In this document: positions 164-63,750 of the stretch, piece by piece
Layout: each line of letters starts with the position of its first letter
How positions within the stretch are numbered: the stretch's first letter is position 1
From: a virus
DNA: 63,750 bases
IMG/VR virus record: IMGVR_UViG_3300045988_109082
Reading direction: 5' to 3' (one strand)
Program-made: the position numbers and the translations under genes
The notes under the pieces: model-generated
What the model saw: only the letters and a program-made list of their open reading frames with translations
Told to the model about the DNA's origin: nothing
Databases searched by the model: none

Positions 164-1315
164 TTAGCGGCAGGTCACCACGTCACCGGGATAGTAGACG
201 TTGATGTTGCCGGAGGGGACGGTGCAGCGGTTGACGTTGTAGCCGTGGGAGGTGGCGAACTCCCATACCGTGTCACCGTACTGGATGGTCTTGGAGACCC
301 CGTCGGACGGTGCGGGGGCGGAGCCCCCGCCGTAGGTGACGACATCGCCCACGTAGTAGCGGTTGATGTCACCGCTTGGCGTGTGCCATGCGGACAGGGG
401 CCATGCGTTGTAGGCTACGGCGAGTCCCCAGATGGTCTCGCCCCACTGCATGACGTAGCTGATGCCTCCAGTGCTGGGAGTGGGCTGGGGAGTGTTCGGC
501 TGCACGGGCGCGGCCGGTGTGGCCGGTGGTGTGGAGTCGCCGGTCGGGTTGGCGTACAAATCCCACTGCCAGCCTTCGCCACGGAAGATGTTGAGGTCGA
601 TGGGACTCCACGTGTTGACCACGCCGGTGCCACTGTACTGTCGCATGGCCTCGCCGTACGCGCCCAGCATCCACGGGTTGGCCTGGTAGCCGGTCGGGCT
701 CATGTTCGCGTACTGCGCGATCCACAAACCGTAGTTGGCGCGGATGTCGCCGGGGATGGTGCCGGCCACGGGGCCGGTGTAGAGCAGCGGCTTGACGCCG
801 CCCGAGAGCCGTTCGCATTCCGCCATGAAGCGGCGCACCCAGTCCCAGTTGCCCCACGCCGGATTATCGTCCATCTCCCAGTCAAGGGCGACGATGCCGT
901 GACGCCAATAGTTGCTGGTGTTGCGGTAGAAGAATTGGGCTTCGGCTTCCGGGTTGCCTCCCATGGCGTAATGGTACAGGCCGAATTTCTTGCCGGATGC
1001 CTGCGCCTGGTAGATCATGCGGTTGGCGTCCGTGTTCACACCGGAGACCAAACAGTTGTTGTTGACCTGTCCGGTGCCCCATGTGGTGCCGACCACGATG
1101 AAATCGGCCTGCATGTTGTACACGTCCGCGCCGCACTGCCAGTTGCTCATGTCCACGCCCTGCATGTCCGCGTGCGCGGTCGCCGGAAGCAGCATCATAC
1201 AGACGGCGGCGACTAGGGCCGTGATCTTGGCGAGCAGACGCTTCCACCACGGCTTGTCCTTGTTTTTAACCAATTTTTCCCCTTTCTCTGAGGTGAATAT
1301 TGTTTTGTGGCCCAC
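164..1315 (-). CDS. Endolysin: GH25 muramidase with N-terminal signal/anchor and two C-terminal LysM-like repeats
   Basis: 383-aa ORF. N-terminus is KDKPWWKR plus a hydrophobic core ending ATAHA. GVDMSNWQ and GLYHYA motifs are typical of GH25. P/T-rich linker, then two LysM-like repeats (YVMQWGETIWGLAVAYN, IQYGDTVWEFATSHGYN). GTG start at 1315; alternative TTG start at 1273 behind AAAGGGG. Confidence 0.85.
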   Translation of the reverse strand: MGHKTIFTSEKGEKLVKNKDKPWWKRLLAKITALVAAVCMMLLPATAHADMQGVDMSNWQCGADVYNMQADFIVVGTTWGTGQVNNNCLVSGVNTDANRMIYQAQASGKKFGLYHYAMGGNPEAEAQFFYRNTSNYWRHGIVALDWEMDDNPAWGNWDWVRRFMAECERLSGGVKPLLYTGPVAGTIPGDIRANYGLWIAQYANMSPTGYQANPWMLGAYGEAMRQYSGTGVVNTWSPIDLNIFRGEGWQWDLYANPTGDSTPPATPAAPVQPNTPQPTPSTGGISYVMQWGETIWGLAVAYNAWPLSAWHTPSGDINRYYVGDVVTYGGGSAPAPSDGVSKTIQYGDTVWEFATSHGYNVNRCTVPSGNINVYYPGDVVTCR

Positions 1316-1393: not shown

Positions 1394-2308
1394 TCAGTCG
1401 ATTTTGTACAGGCGGGGAGTGAACGTCTTATCGACCTCGCCCGTGGTGTTGACGAAAATGTTGCATTGGAGAGTGCCGTCCTTCAAGGTTTTCGGCCCAT
1501 AGTTACGAGGTCCGAACACATTTGCTCCTTCGCTCCCGTCGTCGTGGGAGATATGGGCTTGTATGCCCATCAGCCATGAATTGTTGCCCAGCGGCCAGTC
1601 CGTGGCGTCCATCGTGTACGTTCCCGCATCCACATGCACCACACTGGTCAAGTTATTCCACGAGTCGGTCTCTGTCGTGGTGGAGCCTTTGAACCGGTAC
1701 GTGCCCGGCGATGGTTCCGTGACCATAACACCCGGGTCGGTGCCTAATGTCTTAGGCAGTCCGGTGACACGCGGATACAGGTTCGCTAGTTCATAGCCCC
1801 CCCCCCTAAGGCTCGTGTTGTCGGGTCGCATCCAATCGTGCGCGGTAGTACCGGATTCCAACTGGATTCGGAGGTCGCCGTCCTTCGCGGTGGGCGTGGC
1901 CTCGGTGGAGATGACGTTGAGGAACAGGCTGACGGTGCCGGCAGGGATTGCCATGACACTGTTACCCAAGTTCATTTGGTCTCCCAGTTGCTGCCCCTTG
2001 GCGTCGAGGCACTTGATGTTGAAGCTCAAACCGGCGATACTAGTGCCGCTGAGTTTCACGGTGCCCTGTACCGGGCATGGGAACGTCCACGACAGGCCAC
2101 GCCATTGACCGGTGGCGGTGCCGGTGACGTGCAATGACCCGTCACTGTTGACGGTGGCGGTCAAACCGTTGCCCTCGGCGGGACCATAGGCGAGCAGGTT
2201 ACGGGATTTCACCGTGACTGGAATCCGCTTGCTGATGTTCGGACTGGTTTTCGAGTTGATGGTGACCGTTGTGTTACCGGGTTTCACGCCGGTTACGGAA
2301 ATACCCAT
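1394..2308 (-). CDS. Tail-fibre distal module B (C-terminal half of a Big_2 domain plus putative receptor-binding region)
   Basis: 304 aa behind AAGGAGG. Starts MGISVTGVKPGNTTVTINSK..IPVTV, which matches only the C-half of a Big_2 Ig-like domain. The next ~60 aa are paralogous to 2358..2879. Contains a G10 tract. Confidence 0.75.
   Translation of the reverse strand: MGISVTGVKPGNTTVTINSKTSPNISKRIPVTVKSRNLLAYGPAEGNGLTATVNSDGSLHVTGTATGQWRGLSWTFPCPVQGTVKLSGTSIAGLSFNIKCLDAKGQQLGDQMNLGNSVMAIPAGTVSLFLNVISTEATPTAKDGDLRIQLESGTTAHDWMRPDNTSLRGGGYELANLYPRVTGLPKTLGTDPGVMVTEPSPGTYRFKGSTTTETDSWNNLTSVVHVDAGTYTMDATDWPLGNNSWLMGIQAHISHDDGSEGANVFGPRNYGPKTLKDGTLQCNIFVNTTGEVDKTFTPRLYKID
1797..1806 (-). repeat. 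Homopolymer G10 (C10 on the plus strand) inside fibre module B
   Basis: Codons AGG GGG GGG GGC (R-G-G-G, aa ~168-171). Motif TTAG(10). Confidence 0.95.
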
Positions 2309-2320
2309 GAGGGGCCTCCT

Positions 2321-2354
2321 TGAAATAATGGAAGCCCCTGTTCATGGGGCTTCC
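2321..2354 (-). terminator. Intrinsic terminator hairpin after fibre module A
   Basis: GGAAGCCCC-augaaca-GGGGCUUCC followed by AUUAUUU on the minus strand. Sits between the stop at 2358 and the RBS of the next gene. Confidence 0.6.
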
Positions 2355-2357
2355 GGT

Positions 2358-2879
2358 TTATGCGTATGGCTTGTACGCGTGTGCTTCGCTGCCGGTTTCC
2401 AGCATTGGATACACCGTCGCGTCAACGGGCCTGCCGTTGTTCACTCCGGCCTTGCACTGATAGGTGCTGTTTTCCGATACCGTGAACGTGACAGCCAAAT
2501 TGTGAACTTGATTGTCCAGCACCTTGTATTCGGTCTTGCCGCCTGTGGTAACGGCTACGAATAGGATGATTCCGTCGGGGAGGTTCGCGGCGGATAACGT
2601 GTATTGTCCCGCTGGCAACGGCGTATTATCCGTACTACCCTGATCGGCACGCCCGATTGACGAGGTGCTGGTGCCTTTCACGTGGATGCCACCGTCGGCG
2701 GCGACCGTAAACGTCACGCCATTCTGCGTACCGTTTGGTATCTTCAGCCACATGTTCTTGATCGGGGGTAACACGCGTACTGGAATGGTTTTCGAGACAG
2801 TGCCGGCTTGGATGGTTAGGCTGGTGTCACCCGGGGTCAGGCCGGATACGGCCACCCCCCCCCTAAAAGATTCGTTCAT
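2358..2879 (-). CDS. Tail-fibre distal module A (C-terminal half of a Big_2 domain plus putative receptor-binding region)
   Basis: 173 aa behind AAGGAG. MNESFRG then GVAVSGLTPGDTSLTIQAGTVSKTIPVRV, a Big_2 C-half. Paralogous to the N-terminal part of 1394..2308. G9 tract at codons 6-9. Confidence 0.75.
   Translation of the reverse strand: MNESFRGGVAVSGLTPGDTSLTIQAGTVSKTIPVRVLPPIKNMWLKIPNGTQNGVTFTVAADGGIHVKGTSTSSIGRADQGSTDNTPLPAGQYTLSAANLPDGIILFVAVTTGGKTEYKVLDNQVHNLAVTFTVSENSTYQCKAGVNNGRPVDATVYPMLETGSEAHAYKPYA
2855..2863 (-). repeat. Homopolymer G9 (C9 on the plus strand) at codons 6-9 of fibre module A
   Basis: ATG AAC GAA TCT TTT AGG GGG GGG GTG. Motif TTAG(9). Confidence 0.95.
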
Positions 2880-2884
2880 GATGG

Positions 2885-3595
2885 TTACTCCTTACTGTTG
2901 ATGGGTGCGATGGTCTTGTCGAGGATGTTCGCGGCGAATTCCTGCGGCGCGTAATCCGGCAGGATGTTGACGTTCAGGCTGGCTGTCTCGCCCACCCTCA
3001 ATGTCAACGATTCCGGGGTGACGGTGATGCCGGTCGGTTTCGCGTCGCCAACCACGGCGATATCCGGGCTGGCGGCGCTGGCCGTGAACTCCTGCGATGC
3101 CGCATCGGGCAGGATCGTCACCTTGAGGTTCTTGCTCTCGCCGACGCGCAGGGTGATGTTGTCGATGGGTTTGCCGGAATCGTCCGTGACCTTGATGGAC
3201 TCGGGCGCGTAGGCCGCGCTGATGGACACGGCGGCGGAAGTGAAACCGTTGACCGTGGCCGTCACCAATATGGTTCCGCCATGCCGCCACGTGAGCGTGT
3301 TGCCCGAAACCGTGGCGGTGGAAGTGTCCCGGCTTGTGAACGTCACGTCCTTGGTGGTCAGCAGATCGCCAACATGACCGTCCGCATACGTGGCCTTCGC
3401 CCCCAGTTTCAAAGTGCCGGACACGGCCAGCGACTTGGGCAGCGGCTTGCCCTTATCATCCGTGATCTCGATGGAGACCACCGTGTCCTTGTCCAGCGGC
3501 CATACGAGTTTGCCGTTGAATAGGGCGTTGTACGTGTGGCCGTTCAATAATGGTTTGCCGACACGTTTGCCGGAGTAAAAGGCTGGCATGATCAA
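2885..3595 (-). CDS. Tail-fibre stem protein: one full Big_2 domain plus two orphan Big_2 N-terminal half-domains
   Basis: 236 aa. Full Ig-like segment LAVSGTLKLGAKATYADG...GGTILVTATVNGFTSAAVSISA. It is followed by ITLRVGESKNLKVTILPDAASQEFTASAASPDIAVVGDAK and LTLRVGETASLNVNILPDYAPQEFAANILDKTIAPINSKE, and then a stop codon. Confidence 0.8.
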   Translation of the reverse strand: MIMPAFYSGKRVGKPLLNGHTYNALFNGKLVWPLDKDTVVSIEITDDKGKPLPKSLAVSGTLKLGAKATYADGHVGDLLTTKDVTFTSRDTSTATVSGNTLTWRHGGTILVTATVNGFTSAAVSISAAYAPESIKVTDDSGKPIDNITLRVGESKNLKVTILPDAASQEFTASAASPDIAVVGDAKPTGITVTPESLTLRVGETASLNVNILPDYAPQEFAANILDKTIAPINSKE

Positions 3596-9181: not shown

Positions 9182-12100
9182 TCAGCGCGGACGCATGTTG
9201 CGTTTCCGGGTGGCGGAAGCGACAAGGGTTTCCACCGCGTCGGCTATCCTCCGGTCGGAGGACTCCACGCCGTTGATAGTCACCGTGTTGTTCGTCGTGT
9301 TCCCCGTATTCGCGGGAAGTTCGACCTTTATCACCGGGTTGACTTCGACATTCCACGAGCCGTTCGCCGTGGATACGCGGCCACCGGTCGCATACGCCTG
9401 AGACTTCCTGCGAGCGTTCAACGCGAACGCGGACGGTTGCATGGCTTTCTCCACACTGCCGACCGCGTTCAACGTGTTCAGGAAACTCCTGCCATACAAG
9501 GCGTCAATCTTCTTGACGGCTGCGGCACGAAGCACCATCTCACCATTGGACAGCATCGCCGGAATCGAATCGGAAGTGGAAGTACCGGGACCATAGATAC
9601 GACCACCGGTAGCATGACCGCCACCCCCGGATATCGTGTCGATGAAAGCCGTCCATGTGCGACCAGCGATTGACCGCAGAGTGGATAGCAGGTTCGACGC
9701 GACATCCAAAGCGTTGCCCATCGCATTCAACGTCGTGGAATGATAGGTGGGCACCTTGCCGATCATGCTTCGTGCCGTTCCGGCAAACGATGGCGTATTG
9801 CCGAGACCCGTAAACATGGACAACCACTGCTGAGGAATATTCCGAACCGCATTATTGGCGATGTTGGAAAACAGCGTCGTATTGCCGGAACCAGTCAATA
9901 TAGACTGCCACTGCTGAGGAATGCTCTCAACGGCGTTCTTCGCGATACCGGATGGGCCACTGGTGCCATCAAGTCCGAACAGCCACGACCACCATTCATG
10001 GGGAACACTGAACACGTTCGCCTTAGCGGACTCGGTGCCCTCGCTGGTGTTATCGACGGCGCTGACGAGAATATTATTCTCAGCGAGCTTTTCACCATCG
10101 GACTCCCTATAGGAGGCGAGTTTCACCTGAGCGTCATCATCGTCGGCGTCGATGTTGAAGCTGACGCCCTTGGCGGCGGGAACCTTATTCTTCTCCACGT
10201 CCTTTATCTTGCCGGAAGCGTGGTCGATACAGTCGAGAATCCACTGTATCTGCTCGTCGGTCAGGTTCAGATAGCCGAGCTCGTCCCTGACCTTCTGCAT
10301 GCGCTCCTCAGCGTTGCCCTCACCTGAGAACAGCCACTTGTAGGCTTTCTTGGACATGCCGAGAGCAAGAAGATTCTCCTTGACCTCGCCTGTCTCCCAG
10401 CGAGCATTGCCCTTCGCGTTCAACAGCAATGTGAGGTCCCTCTCGGACAAGTCGCCTTTCATCAGCTGCTCAACAAGACTGAGAACACCGTCCAACGTGG
10501 TGACCACTCCAGCTTCACGTAGCCGGATAACGATCTCTTTCTCACCATCGGTCAGACCGGATATGCCCTGCACGAGCTTATCCACCGCATCTTGGGCGAT
10601 TTCCGAATGAGCGGTGATCGTGGTACCCACATCAGAGGGAATCAGACCAAGCGAATCAGCGTACCTTTCAGCAGCTTCCTCACTCATGCCAGCGGCCTGA
10701 GCCTGCTGCACGATGGCCTCACGCGCCTCATAAATGGAGTTTGCGGCCTTCTGCGTGTACTCCTCCACCTGACCGTTCTTCTCACCATAGGAGAGAAGCT
10801 GATGGGCGGACAGCAACGCGGTAGCGGCCACATCCTTCATCGCCTTGTCGGTGCGCACATAGGCGGCGTTGTTGGCGTCAGCCAGTTCGCCGTTTTCCTT
10901 GAACGCCTGACCGTTCGCCTTGACCGTCGTGGCGAGCGAGCTGAGCTTGTCGGACAGCGCGGAGGAGGAATCGGAGATCTGTTCGAGGGAACGCAGATAT
11001 TTCATCTGCTCCTTGACGGATTTCTCCAAGCCTTCCTTGTGCTGCTTCTTCAACGCCTGCAACAGCGTGTCGGCGGCGATGGCGGCATCGGTCTGCTTCT
11101 CGACCATCATGCCGTACTGGTCGCTGGCCTTGTATGTCTCCTTGCTTTGCGCCTCCAACTGTTTGACGAGCTTCTTGTAGCCGGCCTCGTTGCCGCTGAC
11201 CGCATCGGTCAGCGTACTGGTATTGATGCCCAGACGTTTGGCCGCGTCGGCTGCGGACGTGTAGCCGCCGCTGACCTTGACGAGCCATTCAGTGACCGCG
11301 CCGCCACCGTCCTTTCCGAACAGGAGCGACGGGTCATCCCACTGTTTCGTGGTCTCCGACTTGAAATCGTTGAACGCGTCCGCCGCCTCCTTGGCGTTGG
11401 ACTTGATGCCCTTCATGCCGTCGAGGACCTTGTCCATCGCCTGCTTGGATGCTTCCGCCTTCGTCGTGTAGTCGGATATCGCATTGCCGATGACGGCGAT
11501 GCCCGCGCTGATTCCCAGACCGGCAACCGTCGTCCAGCCGCCGAACGCATCCCACAGGTTCTTCACGCCGGTCTTCAACGAACCGAACCTGCCGGACTGC
11601 TGTTCGGCCTGCTCCCCGGCCGAACGGATGGAGGCGATGGCCTGACCGTTCGCACCGACCAAGCCGCCCATGTCCTTGGAAGTCTCCTTGGCAGCGTTCC
11701 CCGGAAGGAGCAGCTTCTTCGAGTTAGCTTCCGCCGCCATGCCGAGGGAATTGACCTCGCTGATGGCACCGGACAGAATACCCGCATAATTGCCGGAACG
11801 CAACTGGTTCATCGCCTTAATCAGGGTGCCCATTTTCACGGACGCCTGTTCGGCGCTCAAACCCAGTTCGCTGAGCATCTTCTGGTATCGCATCGTGGAC
11901 TGGATGTTCTGCAACATGCCGGTCTTCAACGACTCGAACGCCGTCTTGCCCGCACGACCGAACGTGGCCCACAATGTGATGATGCTTTTCACCGGCCCCG
12001 GCAACGAGTCGAACGCTTGGGCCACGCCGGTGGCACCCTTGGCGATGGTGCTGATAAGCGGGCTCACGGTACGCAAAGCGGACGCGAACGTGCCGCCGAA

Positions 12101-15046
12101 CGTGCGCGACAACTGGCCCACCATGCTCGCCAAATCGGAGAACATGGGGCCCGCGTCACCCACCGCGTCAAACACCTGGCTGAACCCGTCGCGGACACCG
12201 GAACTGAAATCGCGGATTCCACCACCGGACTGCTGCAACACGCGACTCAACCCAGTGATGCCCTCGCCTACGATCTGGCCCGCGTCACCGAACACCGCGC
12301 GAGTGGTGTCCTTCAACGAGTACGCGGCGTCGCCAATATCCTTGAAAGCGTTGCGCATCTTGTCCTGCGCGTCCTGCGCACCAGCGCTCCAAGCCTCCAA
12401 AGTCTCTTGGAACTTGATGGTGTGAACGGCCTTGTTGGCTTTCTCCAAAGCCTCGGAAAAACCTTGGATACCGTTCTCGGTCTTCGCCAGAGTACCCAAC
12501 GTGCCCTCAAACACGCCTATCAGGTCGAACACGGACGATTTCAGATAGCCGCCCTGTTCGATGGCCTTTTCCATCGCCTTAGAGACTTGACCGGTACGTT
12601 CGGCGGTATCCACCCAGTTCGCCCACTTCTCGGCCACGTCGGAAATGTAGGAGGCCATGCGGGGCAGATACTGGCTGGACTGGTCGCCCAAGCCGAGGAA
12701 CGCGCGGGCCAGTGACTGCAAGCCCGGGTTCAGTTCGGACACCGCGAGACGAGTGTTCTCGAAGATACGCGGTAGTTGGTCGGCTTCGTTCGACTGGCGC
12801 ACCACGTCGATAAGCCCGTTGAGCACCTTGCCTTCCTCGACGGCGATACCGTTCAAACCCTTGGACAGTGAGGGGGCCACGTCGTTGGCGAGACGGTACA
12901 GGTTATCCCCGTACTCGTTCCAAGCGTTGTCGCCCAACTCCTTGTTCAGGTTCGCCAGCGAGGTCTTGGTGACATCGAACTTTTCCTTCAAATCACCGAA
13001 CACCCGGTAGCCCACGTAGCCTGCGGACGCCAGACCAGCCAACGCGGCGGGAGCGGCCAACGCGGCCTTGCTCATGGACACGAGGCTGACGCCGACACCG
13101 CCCGCAGTGCGTCCCAGGTTCAGGAGTCCGGCACCCAACGCGGTGACGCCGGCACCGAGAATCGACCACTTGGGAACCACCTTGTCGAGCTTGTCGAACA
13201 GGTTCACAAGACTGTCGAACTGGTTCTGCACGCCCTTCAAACCGGTCGCACCACTGGTCATGCCGGAGAAAATCTTGCCAAGGTCTGTGCCCTTGAAATT
13301 AGCGAAGATGTCGATGGTGCGGGGGCGGGTGAAGTAGGCGAGATGGGCTCGGGCCACCGCGGTCTCCAAGTCCAAATCCATCTTCAGCTCGTCGTTCTTG
13401 TCCTCGAATTTCTTCAGCTTCTCCTCGGCGCGATGCATTTGCAGGTCGAGGTCGGCTTCAAGCTCCCAACGACGTTCGGGATTGGCTTTGATCTTGGCGG
13501 CGGTCTCACGCATCGACGCGATGATTCGTTCCTGATCGACCTGCCAGTCCACGGGAATGTCGAGGCGCGTATGACGCAGCTTCTCCAACCGGGCTTCGAG
13601 CTTGTCGGCGTTGTCCTCCCACACCTTGACGCGGACGTTGACCTCATGCTCCCGGTCGAGTTTGGCGCGCAGCTTCTCCGCGTCATACATCAGTTCCGCG
13701 TATTTTTTGTCCCATTGGGTCTTATCCAATGTGGCTTTGGCGGTGATCGGCTTGCGGGATGCGAAGTCGCGCAGCTTCTTCAGCTGGTCGAAGGTATTGT
13801 TGAGCTCCTTGCCGAGGTTCTTGTCGATGCCCATGGGCTTGAACTTCTGGAACGCGGCGGAAAGCGCGTTGATCTGGGTCTCCTGCTCGTCGAACAGGCT
13901 GGTCAGTTCGCGGGCGGTCTTGCGCTGCTTGTCCATCGTGCGGCGCGAATCGTTCTGTACCGCGTTGAGGCGTTTGACGCTGGTTCCCGTGTCTTCGAAC
14001 ACCTCGGCCAACGCCTTCTGGCCGGCCGTGAGCTTCGACAGCTGCTGGAGCTGCCTGCGGTTCAGCTTCTCGGACTTCTCCTCAAGGTCGAGAATCTTGT
14101 TCAGGCCGGAGAACAGCCGGTCGTTCTCACGGTTGAAGTCTTTGAGCCGCGCCTTGCGCATGAGCTCGGCGTCCGAATACTTGGAGATGGCGTCGGTCGC
14201 CTTCTCCCACTTCTTGGTGTTGGAGTCGATAAGACGCTGCTGTGCCGCTACCTTGTTGTCGAAATCGGCGGAGAAGAGCTTGTTCTGCGCCTTCTTGTTC
14301 TCCGCTATCTCCTTGCCTACCGCCTTCAGGTCGGCTTTCAGGCCCTTGAGCTGTTCGCGCAGCTCGGGGATGCGACTGTTCTTGTACCAGTTCGCGGTGT
14401 CGATGTTCCCGGCCTCGCGCAGCTCCTTCATCTTCTTGATGGACCAGTCAAGGGTCTTACTGACATCGGCTTGGCTGCGGGTCAACTGCTCCTGACGTTT
14501 GCGCCCGTTCTCGATGGCCTCCGCGTACATGTCGTAGGCGGCGTGCTCGTCCTTGATGAGCATGGTCTGCCTGCGGGATGCGGCCGTGGCCTCCTTGTCG
14601 TAGAGGGCGCGTGCCGAACGCATGCGGGAGAGACTGTCCTGAAGACTGTCGGCCACGGATTTCTGCGACTTCTTGACGAACGCCTCCGTCTGGCCGGCGG
14701 TCCGCTTGATCTGGTTGGAAAGCCGGTGAATCTTCTCATTGAACGACGTATCGTCCAAGTCGAACCTGCTTGTGACCGGCTTCTTCTCCCACTGCTTCCG
14801 CTGGGCCTGCATGGCCTTGTCGATGGCACGCAAGCCGGACGGGTCGCCGTCGATCTTCACCACGTTGGTGAGGGTCTTGCCGTCAAGGTCGCGCATCTGC
14901 TCCTTGGCGCGTGCGACGCCCTTCGTGTTCACATCAACGGTGACCTCAGGGTGACGAGAATGCAGTTCCGCATTGAGAATCTTCCAGAAATTATCGGTGT
15001 CCGGGCGAATATCGACGCCGACCGCGCCAGCGGAATACAAGGCCAT
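9182..15046 (-). CDS. Tape measure protein
   Basis: 1954-aa ORF between the chaperone genes and the tail tip. Long coiled-coil N-terminal third, multiple hydrophobic stretches, C-terminal GGRIYGPGTSTSDSIPAMLSNGEMVL motif. Confidence 0.9.
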   Translation of the reverse strand: MALYSAGAVGVDIRPDTDNFWKILNAELHSRHPEVTVDVNTKGVARAKEQMRDLDGKTLTNVVKIDGDPSGLRAIDKAMQAQRKQWEKKPVTSRFDLDDTSFNEKIHRLSNQIKRTAGQTEAFVKKSQKSVADSLQDSLSRMRSARALYDKEATAASRRQTMLIKDEHAAYDMYAEAIENGRKRQEQLTRSQADVSKTLDWSIKKMKELREAGNIDTANWYKNSRIPELREQLKGLKADLKAVGKEIAENKKAQNKLFSADFDNKVAAQQRLIDSNTKKWEKATDAISKYSDAELMRKARLKDFNRENDRLFSGLNKILDLEEKSEKLNRRQLQQLSKLTAGQKALAEVFEDTGTSVKRLNAVQNDSRRTMDKQRKTARELTSLFDEQETQINALSAAFQKFKPMGIDKNLGKELNNTFDQLKKLRDFASRKPITAKATLDKTQWDKKYAELMYDAEKLRAKLDREHEVNVRVKVWEDNADKLEARLEKLRHTRLDIPVDWQVDQERIIASMRETAAKIKANPERRWELEADLDLQMHRAEEKLKKFEDKNDELKMDLDLETAVARAHLAYFTRPRTIDIFANFKGTDLGKIFSGMTSGATGLKGVQNQFDSLVNLFDKLDKVVPKWSILGAGVTALGAGLLNLGRTAGGVGVSLVSMSKAALAAPAALAGLASAGYVGYRVFGDLKEKFDVTKTSLANLNKELGDNAWNEYGDNLYRLANDVAPSLSKGLNGIAVEEGKVLNGLIDVVRQSNEADQLPRIFENTRLAVSELNPGLQSLARAFLGLGDQSSQYLPRMASYISDVAEKWANWVDTAERTGQVSKAMEKAIEQGGYLKSSVFDLIGVFEGTLGTLAKTENGIQGFSEALEKANKAVHTIKFQETLEAWSAGAQDAQDKMRNAFKDIGDAAYSLKDTTRAVFGDAGQIVGEGITGLSRVLQQSGGGIRDFSSGVRDGFSQVFDAVGDAGPMFSDLASMVGQLSRTFGGTFASALRTVSPLISTIAKGATGVAQAFDSLPGPVKSIITLWATFGRAGKTAFESLKTGMLQNIQSTMRYQKMLSELGLSAEQASVKMGTLIKAMNQLRSGNYAGILSGAISEVNSLGMAAEANSKKLLLPGNAAKETSKDMGGLVGANGQAIASIRSAGEQAEQQSGRFGSLKTGVKNLWDAFGGWTTVAGLGISAGIAVIGNAISDYTTKAEASKQAMDKVLDGMKGIKSNAKEAADAFNDFKSETTKQWDDPSLLFGKDGGGAVTEWLVKVSGGYTSAADAAKRLGINTSTLTDAVSGNEAGYKKLVKQLEAQSKETYKASDQYGMMVEKQTDAAIAADTLLQALKKQHKEGLEKSVKEQMKYLRSLEQISDSSSALSDKLSSLATTVKANGQAFKENGELADANNAAYVRTDKAMKDVAATALLSAHQLLSYGEKNGQVEEYTQKAANSIYEAREAIVQQAQAAGMSEEAAERYADSLGLIPSDVGTTITAHSEIAQDAVDKLVQGISGLTDGEKEIVIRLREAGVVTTLDGVLSLVEQLMKGDLSERDLTLLLNAKGNARWETGEVKENLLALGMSKKAYKWLFSGEGNAEERMQKVRDELGYLNLTDEQIQWILDCIDHASGKIKDVEKNKVPAAKGVSFNIDADDDDAQVKLASYRESDGEKLAENNILVSAVDNTSEGTESAKANVFSVPHEWWSWLFGLDGTSGPSGIAKNAVESIPQQWQSILTGSGNTTLFSNIANNAVRNIPQQWLSMFTGLGNTPSFAGTARSMIGKVPTYHSTTLNAMGNALDVASNLLSTLRSIAGRTWTAFIDTISGGGGHATGGRIYGPGTSTSDSIPAMLSNGEMVLRAAAVKKIDALYGRSFLNTLNAVGSVEKAMQPSAFALNARRKSQAYATGGRVSTANGSWNVEVNPVIKVELPANTGNTTNNTVTINGVESSDRRIADAVETLVASATRKRNMRPR

Positions 15047-63455: not shown

Positions 63456-63728
63456 CTACTTGCCGGCCATGCGTACGGGGTTGTATGCGACTCCGAATCC
63501 TGCGGCGATGATGCCTGCGGCGGTACTGATGAAACCGCCGATTTCGGGGGAGCCGAAGCTCATGAACCCGAGTCCGATGACCGAGGCGACGAGCGTGACC
63601 ACGTAGATGACGGTGCGCACCGTGTCATTGAATACGGGAGTGTACGGCGTGGCCGTATGGTCGGGAATATTGGGCGTGCCGGTTTCCGTGATTTCTTCGA
63701 GTTGGGTGTCCGGCGTGTTGTCGGTCAT
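63456..63728 (-). CDS. Holin-like protein (two TM segments)
   Basis: 90 aa. TM1 VIYVVTLVASVIGLGFMSF, TM2 IGGFISTAAGIIAAGFGVAY. Immediately downstream of the endolysin on the circular map. Confidence 0.65.
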   Translation of the reverse strand: MTDNTPDTQLEEITETGTPNIPDHTATPYTPVFNDTVRTVIYVVTLVASVIGLGFMSFGSPEIGGFISTAAGIIAAGFGVAYNPVRMAGK

Positions 63729-63750
63729 GTTTTGCTCCGATCAAAAAAAT
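63632..63750. repeat. Terminal direct repeat copy 2, identical to 1..119
   Basis: See 1..119. Confidence 0.95.

Follow-up and report, generated by a model that had tools for sequence, protein, structure and literature searches.

We examine here a stretch of viral DNA of 63,750 nucleotides (nt) (IMG/VR record IMGVR_UViG_3300045988_109082; the whole stretch is called the window below), which comes from a temperate siphophage of Bifidobacterium from the human gut. The element in focus is a run of nine G residues (tract A) close to the start of gene A, an open reading frame (ORF) among the tail genes. We assign a probability of about two in three (0.68) to the reading that this run is a contingency locus, the length of which is changed by slippage in replication, such that translation of the encoded module A from its ATG is gated. 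The run varies from G7 to G11 among related genomes, is conserved as G9 in divergent ones, and truncates the product at lengths that are not multiples of three (3n), which together support the ON/OFF slipped-strand switch that had been proposed from the letters of the window (the original prediction).

All late genes around tract A are carried by the minus strand, and the plus strand shows ggccaCCCCCCCCCtaaaagattcgttcat, with C9 at 2855-2863. On the coding strand gene A starts with ATG AAC GAA TCT TTT AGG GGG GGG GTG, as had been noted. Resizing the tract in silico confirms that a change of a single G in either direction ends translation early: the G8 product is MNESFRGGWPYPA (13 amino acids, aa) and the G10 product is MNESFRGGGGRIRPDPG (17 aa), each followed directly by a stop, while the full-length protein is obtained from G6, G9 and G12. 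At 3n lengths, such as the G9 found here, the ATG, which is led by a Shine-Dalgarno (SD) sequence, is in frame with a body of 165 codons; the tested non-3n lengths stop after 13-17 codons.

The original prediction had also counted two long G/C runs only, both in a TTAG(n) context. This is borne out, in that the window contains C9 and the C10 run at 1797-1806 (tract B, in the adjacent gene B, 1.06 kb from tract A) and no others of at least 7; both are G runs on the minus strand and both are preceded by TTA. From base composition alone G9 is not significantly rare, with a mean of 0.65 G9 matches in dinucleotide shuffles and at least 3 matches in 6 of 100 shuffles. In the genome's own spectrum, G/C runs fall off from 54 at five bases to 4 at six and are absent at seven and eight, after which there is a single run each of nine and ten bases; log-linear extrapolation of this spectrum predicts just 0.034 runs of at least 9, so that tracts A and B are outliers. 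Tract A thus has two properties of a contingency locus: it is exceptional for its genome, and it lies in a coding position where non-3n lengths lead to a stop after a few codons.

The third property concerns variability. By means of a gapped pattern scan on the shared flanks, 10 viral and 16 metagenome contigs were collected, which with the window makes 27. The tract is G7 in two of them, G8 in four, G9 in ten, A+G8 in one, G10 in seven, A+G9 in one and G11 in two. It is the sole frameshifting indel of the A gene in an alignment of 687 columns, where one contig has a 3-nt insertion elsewhere, and none of the G/C runs of 5-6 in these loci varies in length. Of 25 pairs with zero substitutions over the 620 nt of flanking sequence, 15 (60%) have tracts of unequal length, and among more divergent pairs the share is 71-79%. 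Since pairs with identical flanks differ nearly as often as divergent ones, tract length is uncoupled from descent, and the repeat number changes far faster than the sequence around it. Downstream of the tract, the frame of 165 codons stays open in 27/27 contigs irrespective of the tract state, which fits reversible switching. Among isolates, B. breve CP118083.1 has G9 in tract A with B in frame, and B. longum GCA_019128495.1, a draft with four concordant contigs, has G10 with B split. In the four main 90%-identity clusters (~1,100 database sequences), 165-aa products called from a GTG and 173-aa products called from the ATG make up about half each. From these differences between assemblies we infer that mixed states may also occur within single populations.

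In the mechanism that we propose, slipped-strand mispairing in DNA replication would add or remove G residues, in the lysogen via the host replisome as well as in lytic replication, and the poly-G run would act as a gate ahead of a cargo domain. Genomes in the OFF state would then yield virions without module A, or with little of it if the GTG adjacent to the tract is used.

The homopolymer is also kept far beyond the close relatives. It had been stated that its absence as a homopolymer from every relative would speak against the switch, and instead G9 is present in L027 (the prophage of B. reuteri DSM 23975, MPTTTEAF-RGG-VSV, 82% protein identity), L028 (MPTTTAF-RGG), L032 (MIQTF-RGG-ASV) and L033 (MPTTTAF-RGG-ASV, with a different cargo domain). 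The module genes of L032 and L033 fall under a 50% identity clustering threshold and carry other leader peptides. In all, MNESF, MSETF, MPTTTAF, MPTTTEAF and MIQTF are found ahead of the conserved G9. The homologue in L034, MAGTFTGG, encodes the same position without a G run; this contig has a G9 at 593-601, close to the 3' end of a 168-aa gene that looks unrelated. Because a genome that avoids runs keeps this G run across lineages, we consider retention of a mutable tract a better description than neutral coding.

The comparison with L032 also bears on how gene A is built. This contig has three tracts (1550-1558, 2597-2606 and 3017-3025), each at a junction before a cargo domain, and it encodes a 348-aa unsplit protein, P0351, in which the equivalent of U, the gene upstream of A, continues through G9 into the C-terminal strands of an immunoglobulin-like (Ig) domain and then into the cargo (...AIATIQAL-GGG-RCSLTALAAGTTTITIK...). 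A single continuous Pfam Big_2 domain spans the GGG of P0351. From the shared ATCGCAACCATC to the G run there are 9 nt in L032 vs 36 nt in the window, and the latter hold the stop, the SD, the ATG and five codons. Since the junction is unbroken in L032, gene A can be regarded as a split version of the U/module junction, with the tract at the homologous loop. P0351 is a singleton in the protein database, and a pattern scan of viral contigs for fused junctions of the L032 type found none.

In the window itself no single polypeptide has a complete Big_2 (PF02368): the last ~49 residues of U (2888-3034) match just the N-terminal ~60% of the domain, and the missing C-terminal strands open both A (residues 9-38; 2766-2855) and B (the first ~35 residues; 2200-2308). 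Against the Big_2 profile of 79 positions, the tail of U alone covers 3-49 with 21.7 bits, and in silico joining extends this to 3-72 with 41.9 bits for the head of B and to 3-75 with 25.2 bits for the head of A. The U C-terminus (2888-3180) consists of two ~47-aa units, each of which matches only the N-terminal ~60% of Big_2. The longer U homologues (390-474 aa) turned out to be frameshift read-through fusions and not natural ones. Joining of U to A by tract slippage, readthrough or frameshifting is excluded by the stops just upstream of the tract in both other frames, namely TAA and TGA in the U frame and TAG (from TTTTAGG) in the third frame.

The product of gene A consists of an 8-residue leader (MNESFRGG), the Big_2 strands (~residues 9-38) and a tail-fibre-type domain (~residues 39-173). 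An earlier model of this domain from 8 close homologues was unusable, with a predicted local distance difference test (pLDDT) score of 46.9; with 35 distant homologues aligned, the score is 95.8 and the modelled domain is a beta-sandwich. In a viral structure library the best matches reach E=4e-9 and a template-modelling (TM) score of 0.83, within a range of 0.7-0.83, and bear the names tail fiber, putative tail fiber, receptor binding protein and distal tail protein, which are themselves predictions. On this basis the label of a fibre module, which had been used before, is reasonable. The fold matches in the PDB are weak (the carbohydrate-binding modules CBM6, CBM16 and CBM86, with E ~1e-3 and TM 0.4-0.55), and the PDB matches at the sequence level are all spurious ones to short motifs, for example in SpyCatcher. 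The domain family has 870 representatives and occurs in 2-6 tandem copies in proteins of 400-2700 aa, some of them with tail-fibre PHROG or Pfam matches. Overall, U, A and B look like accessory tail modules of carbohydrate-binding type, and not demonstrably like the primary receptor-binding protein.

Among the 26 relatives, the substitutions in A (2358-2852) amount to a minimum of 46 nonsynonymous vs 7 synonymous events, and the pairwise ratio of nonsynonymous to synonymous rates (dN/dS, omega) is ~1.7. They cluster at residues 48-54, 75-80, 97-111 and 144-156. The nonsynonymous excess suggests diversifying selection on a surface that may serve in binding or host contact. Purifying selection on A, which would have served as a proof of function, was dropped, omega being at least 1.

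It is important to point out that several observations weigh against the switch. In-frame states are not enriched, the ATG being in frame in 11/27 contigs vs one third expected (P=0.27), and the genomes sampled, probably prophages for the most part, show no sign of selection for ON. The OFF state may leak, because the GTG abuts the tract in frame and the G run pairs with the anti-SD sequence, with a predicted duplex of -10 to -14 kcal/mol that is stronger for longer tracts. In the B. breve lysogen CP118083.1 (L030), a change from A3 to A4 near position 3505 (GGAAACCGG to GGAAAACCGG; ~2395-2400 in the window) shifts the frame of the last 12 codons of A, resulting in 180 aa, and is an inactivating change outside the tract. 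An omega of at least 1 is equally expected from relaxed constraint. Virion presence, binding and any adsorption or host-range effect of module A are putative, as judged from fold and gene position. Finally, some of the length variation may be technical, given that annotated G-tract lengths are unreliable and that Illumina sequencing yields artefacts at G tracts (PMC9187656).

Taken to its limit, the last point would mean that errors in sequencing or assembly account for most of the length differences and that the tract is a stable Arg-Gly-Gly coding stretch. Besides the disagreement between annotated and measured lengths reported in PMC9187656, this could explain the odd local variants by the tract in the database proteins P0018, P0037 and P0044, and several of the contigs have low coverage (cov 2-7 in their names). 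However, the differences extend to +/-2 and are common in both directions, a contig with 58x coverage (L025) has G10, the four concordant contigs of the B. longum draft also have G10, and the same assemblies have no other indel. A stable coding stretch would also have to account for a tract that is kept across lineages with less than 50% protein identity while G/C runs above 6 are otherwise missing from the genome, and slippage in the host species is real, as demonstrated in PMC9187656. We therefore regard this explanation as highly improbable.

The main alternative is that the true start is the GTG after the tract. The G run would then serve as 5' leader and ribosome-binding sequence, and a short upstream ORF would begin at the ATG, with the tract length tuning initiation via SD strength, spacing and overlap with this ORF instead of switching the gene ON and OFF. 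The lack of an in-frame bias fits this proposal, as does a body ORF that is open in every state. In addition, the G run matches or exceeds AAGGAG in pairing with the anti-SD, increasingly so with length, and the GTG is chosen by gene callers in roughly half of the database entries; when the ATG is out of frame, they begin the 165-aa products there (P0002, P0004). On the other hand, the GTG is not conserved: it is GTC in L027 and GCT in L032 and L033, and all three of these divergent lineages have retained the ATG, the SD and G9. The spacing of 0-4 nt between the G run and the GTG is short for initiation according to general knowledge, and ribosomes that start from the strong upstream SD and ATG would translate over the GTG. 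In L032, moreover, the homologous tract lies in the middle of the 348-aa ORF, where it can only gate the frame. Initiation at the GTG is in our view rather unlikely.

The AAGGAG lies 8 nt from the ATG, has a predicted duplex of -8.4 kcal/mol with the anti-SD, and is kept in 24/25 contigs that span this stretch (the exception being AAGAAG), and also in L027 and L028. The stop of gene U (TAA, 2885-2887) is located 5 nt ahead of the ATG, and because the two adjoin, U and A are probably translationally coupled. Two contigs (L008 and L022, 1-61 in both) start 61 nt ahead of the ATG of A, with an unrelated sequence bearing a hairpin in place of the end of U and with the breakpoint exactly at CATGAAC; this may be a contig-end artefact or a rearrangement.

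A third alternative is that recoding at the level of the RNA or the ribosome, by transcriptional slippage or frameshifting, yields an in-frame product at any DNA length. RNA polymerase is generally known to be able to slip on long homopolymers, and the absent in-frame enrichment would fit. Productive transcriptional slippage is, however, mostly known from A/T runs, there is no stimulatory structure or slippery heptamer at the tract, and the study of the B. breve pilus genes credits slippage in replication and found that pili required strains locked in frame (PMC9187656). We give this possibility hardly any weight.

Tract A has a counterpart in gene B. The original prediction placed both tracts in paralogous fibre modules. 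A and B are adjacent, they are ~42% identical over the first ~66 residues, and each has one of the tracts. The second tract is not at the start of gene B but at codon ~168, between the two C-terminal domains, B1 (phrog_35081) and B2 (phrog_35108, the same family as the A domain). When tract B is resized in silico, G7, G10 and G13 give products of 303-305 aa, and G8, G9, G11 and G12 give 171-174 aa. Of the 25 relatives that were typed, 13 have B1 and B2 in one common frame and 12 have the two domains out of frame with each other. All four combinations with tract A occur: A ON with B long in 7 contigs, A ON with B short in 4, A OFF with B long in 6, and A OFF with B short in 8. In one contig (L005) tract B is interrupted (GGGTGGGGGGTGG) and locked in frame. 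Tract B would thus set the number of distal domains in module B at one or two, and the two tracts together could specify four tail configurations per genome.

Gene B has 1902 database homologues, and the B1 and B2 alleles assort independently among the contigs in a mosaic manner. One may therefore ask if the tract-bearing linker is mainly a recombination joint for swapping modules, with mutability as a tolerated side effect. The independently varying identities of B1 and B2 and the varied cargo of B2 or A type after the same segment of leader, tract and Ig strands are in line with this, and so are the fusion and deletion products at short homologies (P0009-P0012). Homologous recombination needs conserved flanks and not a G run, however, and a joint leaves unexplained why Arg-Gly-Gly is always encoded by uninterrupted G. 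A recombination joint is, furthermore, compatible with a switch and does not exclude it. As the main function of the linker it is very improbable. The four products P0009, P0010, P0011 and P0012 join U to the interior of A or the head of A to B, at the very short homologies AAN(I/L)(L/P)D, VTFT and SK(T/R)IP. The P0012 cluster has 136 members, with ordinary B-type proteins among those listed, and the rarer fusions may be chimeras.

A more far-reaching version of the switch is that poly-G runs are the standard joints of a modular bifidophage system, with a slippery run before every cargo domain, 2^n virion types, and a split Ig domain that is completed in trans. The runs would be placed in an Ig loop (L032), after a leader of 5-8 codons (the window and B. 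reuteri) or in an inter-domain linker (gene B), and strand complementation between U and A or B, taking place whenever the module is produced, would amount to a frameshift-gated, non-covalent docking of modules. We consider this generalization doubtful. Docking by complementation is speculative and fits a simple stoichiometry poorly. A one-to-one complementation between U and the modules was rejected on the counts, as B. reuteri has 3 half units vs 2 modules and L032 is without a spare half unit and yet has 2 free modules.

The coordinates of the features are collected in Table 1. An exact 119-nt terminal repeat is present in the window, 1-119 being identical to 63632-63750, and because both ends carry these identical 119 nt, the window is a circular assembly with a unit of ~63,631 bp. 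Its GC content is 57%. Genes U, A and B are distal to the tape-measure gene and beside the lysis gene, and as the GH25 endolysin gene adjoins downstream, they form the distal end of the tail gene block. In the gap between B and the lysin gene there are a terminator-like hairpin after B and a promoter-like site before the lysin gene (1330-1357 and 1364-1389). Polarity on B from the ~480 nt of A mRNA that are untranslated in OFF states might occur, but this is speculation. The sole other homopolymer that was seen to vary, to a minor extent, is an intergenic A7 run downstream of the lysin gene (112-118), which is A7 in 3 and A6 in 2 related contigs. With the A region as query, the GenBank phage collection gave no match at either the nucleotide or the protein level.

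Table 1. Positions of the tracts, start signals and genes discussed in the text (window coordinates).
Feature	Position	Strand	Remark
Poly-G tract A (G9), codons 6-9 of gene A	2855-2863	-	Candidate hypermutable element
In-frame GTG, codon 9, possible alternative start	2853-2855	-	First G is the last G of the tract
Shine-Dalgarno AAGGAG for the gene A ATG	2888-2893	-	Within the final codons of gene U
Gene A, 173 aa, ATG start	2358-2879	-	ORF; matches phrog_35108 and phrog_35081
Terminator-like hairpin, A-B gap	2330-2354	-	Consensus scan only
Gene B, 304 aa	1394-2308	-	C-terminal Ig strands, B1, G10 linker, B2
Poly-G tract B (G10), codon ~168 of gene B, B1-B2 linker	1797-1806	-	Sequence
GH25 endolysin	164-1315	-	Pfam Glyco_hydro_25 match; directly downstream
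Gene U, Ig-like (Big_2) tail-associated protein, 236 aa	2885-3595	-	Pfam Big_2 match
Minor-tail-like protein, 288 aa	3592-4458	-	Between the tail proteins and gene U
Tape-measure gene	9182-15046	-	Start of the local order; other tail proteins come next

If the switch is real, a single lysate would be a mixture of adsorption types, and a single reference sequence may describe an OFF phage. B. longum, B. breve and B. catenulatum belong to the key commensals of the gut, and no plaque-forming host was found for the prophages of these three species (PMC6109161). Stochastic tail switching could, if it takes place, help to explain failed host-range tests, and locking the tracts in frame would be a handle for making these phages tractable. 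It would also mean that contingency loci, known from virulent phages of Campylobacter and from T-even phages, occur in temperate actinobacterial phages too, where the slippage-prone replication of the host would diversify the prophage in the time between infections. As to annotation, the database calls of 165 aa and 131 aa and the split B1/B2 calls are tract states of one gene and not separate genes. The phage family carrying A and B is widespread, and the reading is not conceptually surprising.

The closest phage precedent is in Campylobacter. Sorensen et al. reportedly showed in 2021 that length changes of polyG in Campylobacter phages shift the frame and give mixed phage populations, with the phenotype demonstrated experimentally. 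Passages in PMC10877375 and PMC12823448 cite polyG tracts in host-recognition genes of Campylobacter Fletchervirus phages. The likeness lies in phage poly-G runs within genes of host-recognition type, the frame of which is changed by length. The Campylobacter phages, however, are virulent myophages of a Gram-negative host, whereas the present one is a temperate siphophage of Actinobacteria, a prophage in a slippage-prone host. Here, the tracts are at module junctions where they would gate cargo domains, and a phenotypic effect, known for Campylobacter, is putative.

From the host side, the sortase-dependent pilus genes of B. breve have G10-G12 tracts that were shown experimentally to slip in replication (Penno et al. 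2022, PMC9187656). Cultures grown from a single colony contain these tracts at several lengths, with G11 at 37% and G12 at 60% in one culture, and the tracts work as ON/OFF switches (PMC9187656). Common to both cases are the genus and an early G tract in a surface-structure gene that decides on continued translation. In B. breve the gene is chromosomal and the tract joins an ORF for the signal peptide to the pilin body, while here it is a phage or prophage tail gene and the tract joins a 5-codon leader (protein U in L032) to an Ig-strand and tail-fibre-type, weakly CBM-like module.

Contingency loci have also been described in T2/T4 and other phages, where repeats give reversible frameshifts and bet-hedging (Gomez, Barrick and Waters 2025 preprint, PMC12633550). 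Those in T2/T4 are mostly short repeats of A/T type in many functional classes, in virulent coliphages and connected with defence evasion. In contrast, there are two exceptional G runs here, in a run-poor genome with 57% GC, and both are in tail modules.

Bifidobacterial prophages are known to diversify by DNA inversion, in the Rin shufflon with 11-bp rix sites and a dedicated recombinase, and in a second inversion (Mavrich et al. 2018, PMC6109161). These prophages probably belong to the same group as the present phage, and the purpose, varying the C-terminal host-recognition part of a tail protein, is alike. The means differ, with site-specific inversion there and frameshifting here, where the modules are all in direct orientation. 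A shufflon of the Rin/Min/Gin/Cin type was considered for the window and rejected, since all modules share one strand and the region from the tape-measure gene to U is free of recombinase ORFs; nor do the 27 contigs show any inversion. The words 'homopolymer', 'frameshift' and 'poly-G' have 0 occurrences in PMC6109161. Two prophages with A and B, L029 (B. longum) and L030 (B. breve), adjoin dnaJ and encode, ~2 kb upstream of U, a tyrosine recombinase of 289 aa (the stretches concerned are L029 14-883, L030 8-877 and L030 6336-6543). This enzyme probably corresponds to the Rin invertase that PMC6109161 describes for the dnaJ2-integrated group; if so, these phages combine an inversion shufflon with poly-G gates.

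Full-text literature searches found no description of poly-G in the tail genes of bifidophages. The mechanism class as such is already known, and the tail gene of a bifidobacterial phage, a case that we did not find described, is a new member of it; the parts that could be new beyond this are the junction-gate architecture and the split Ig domain.

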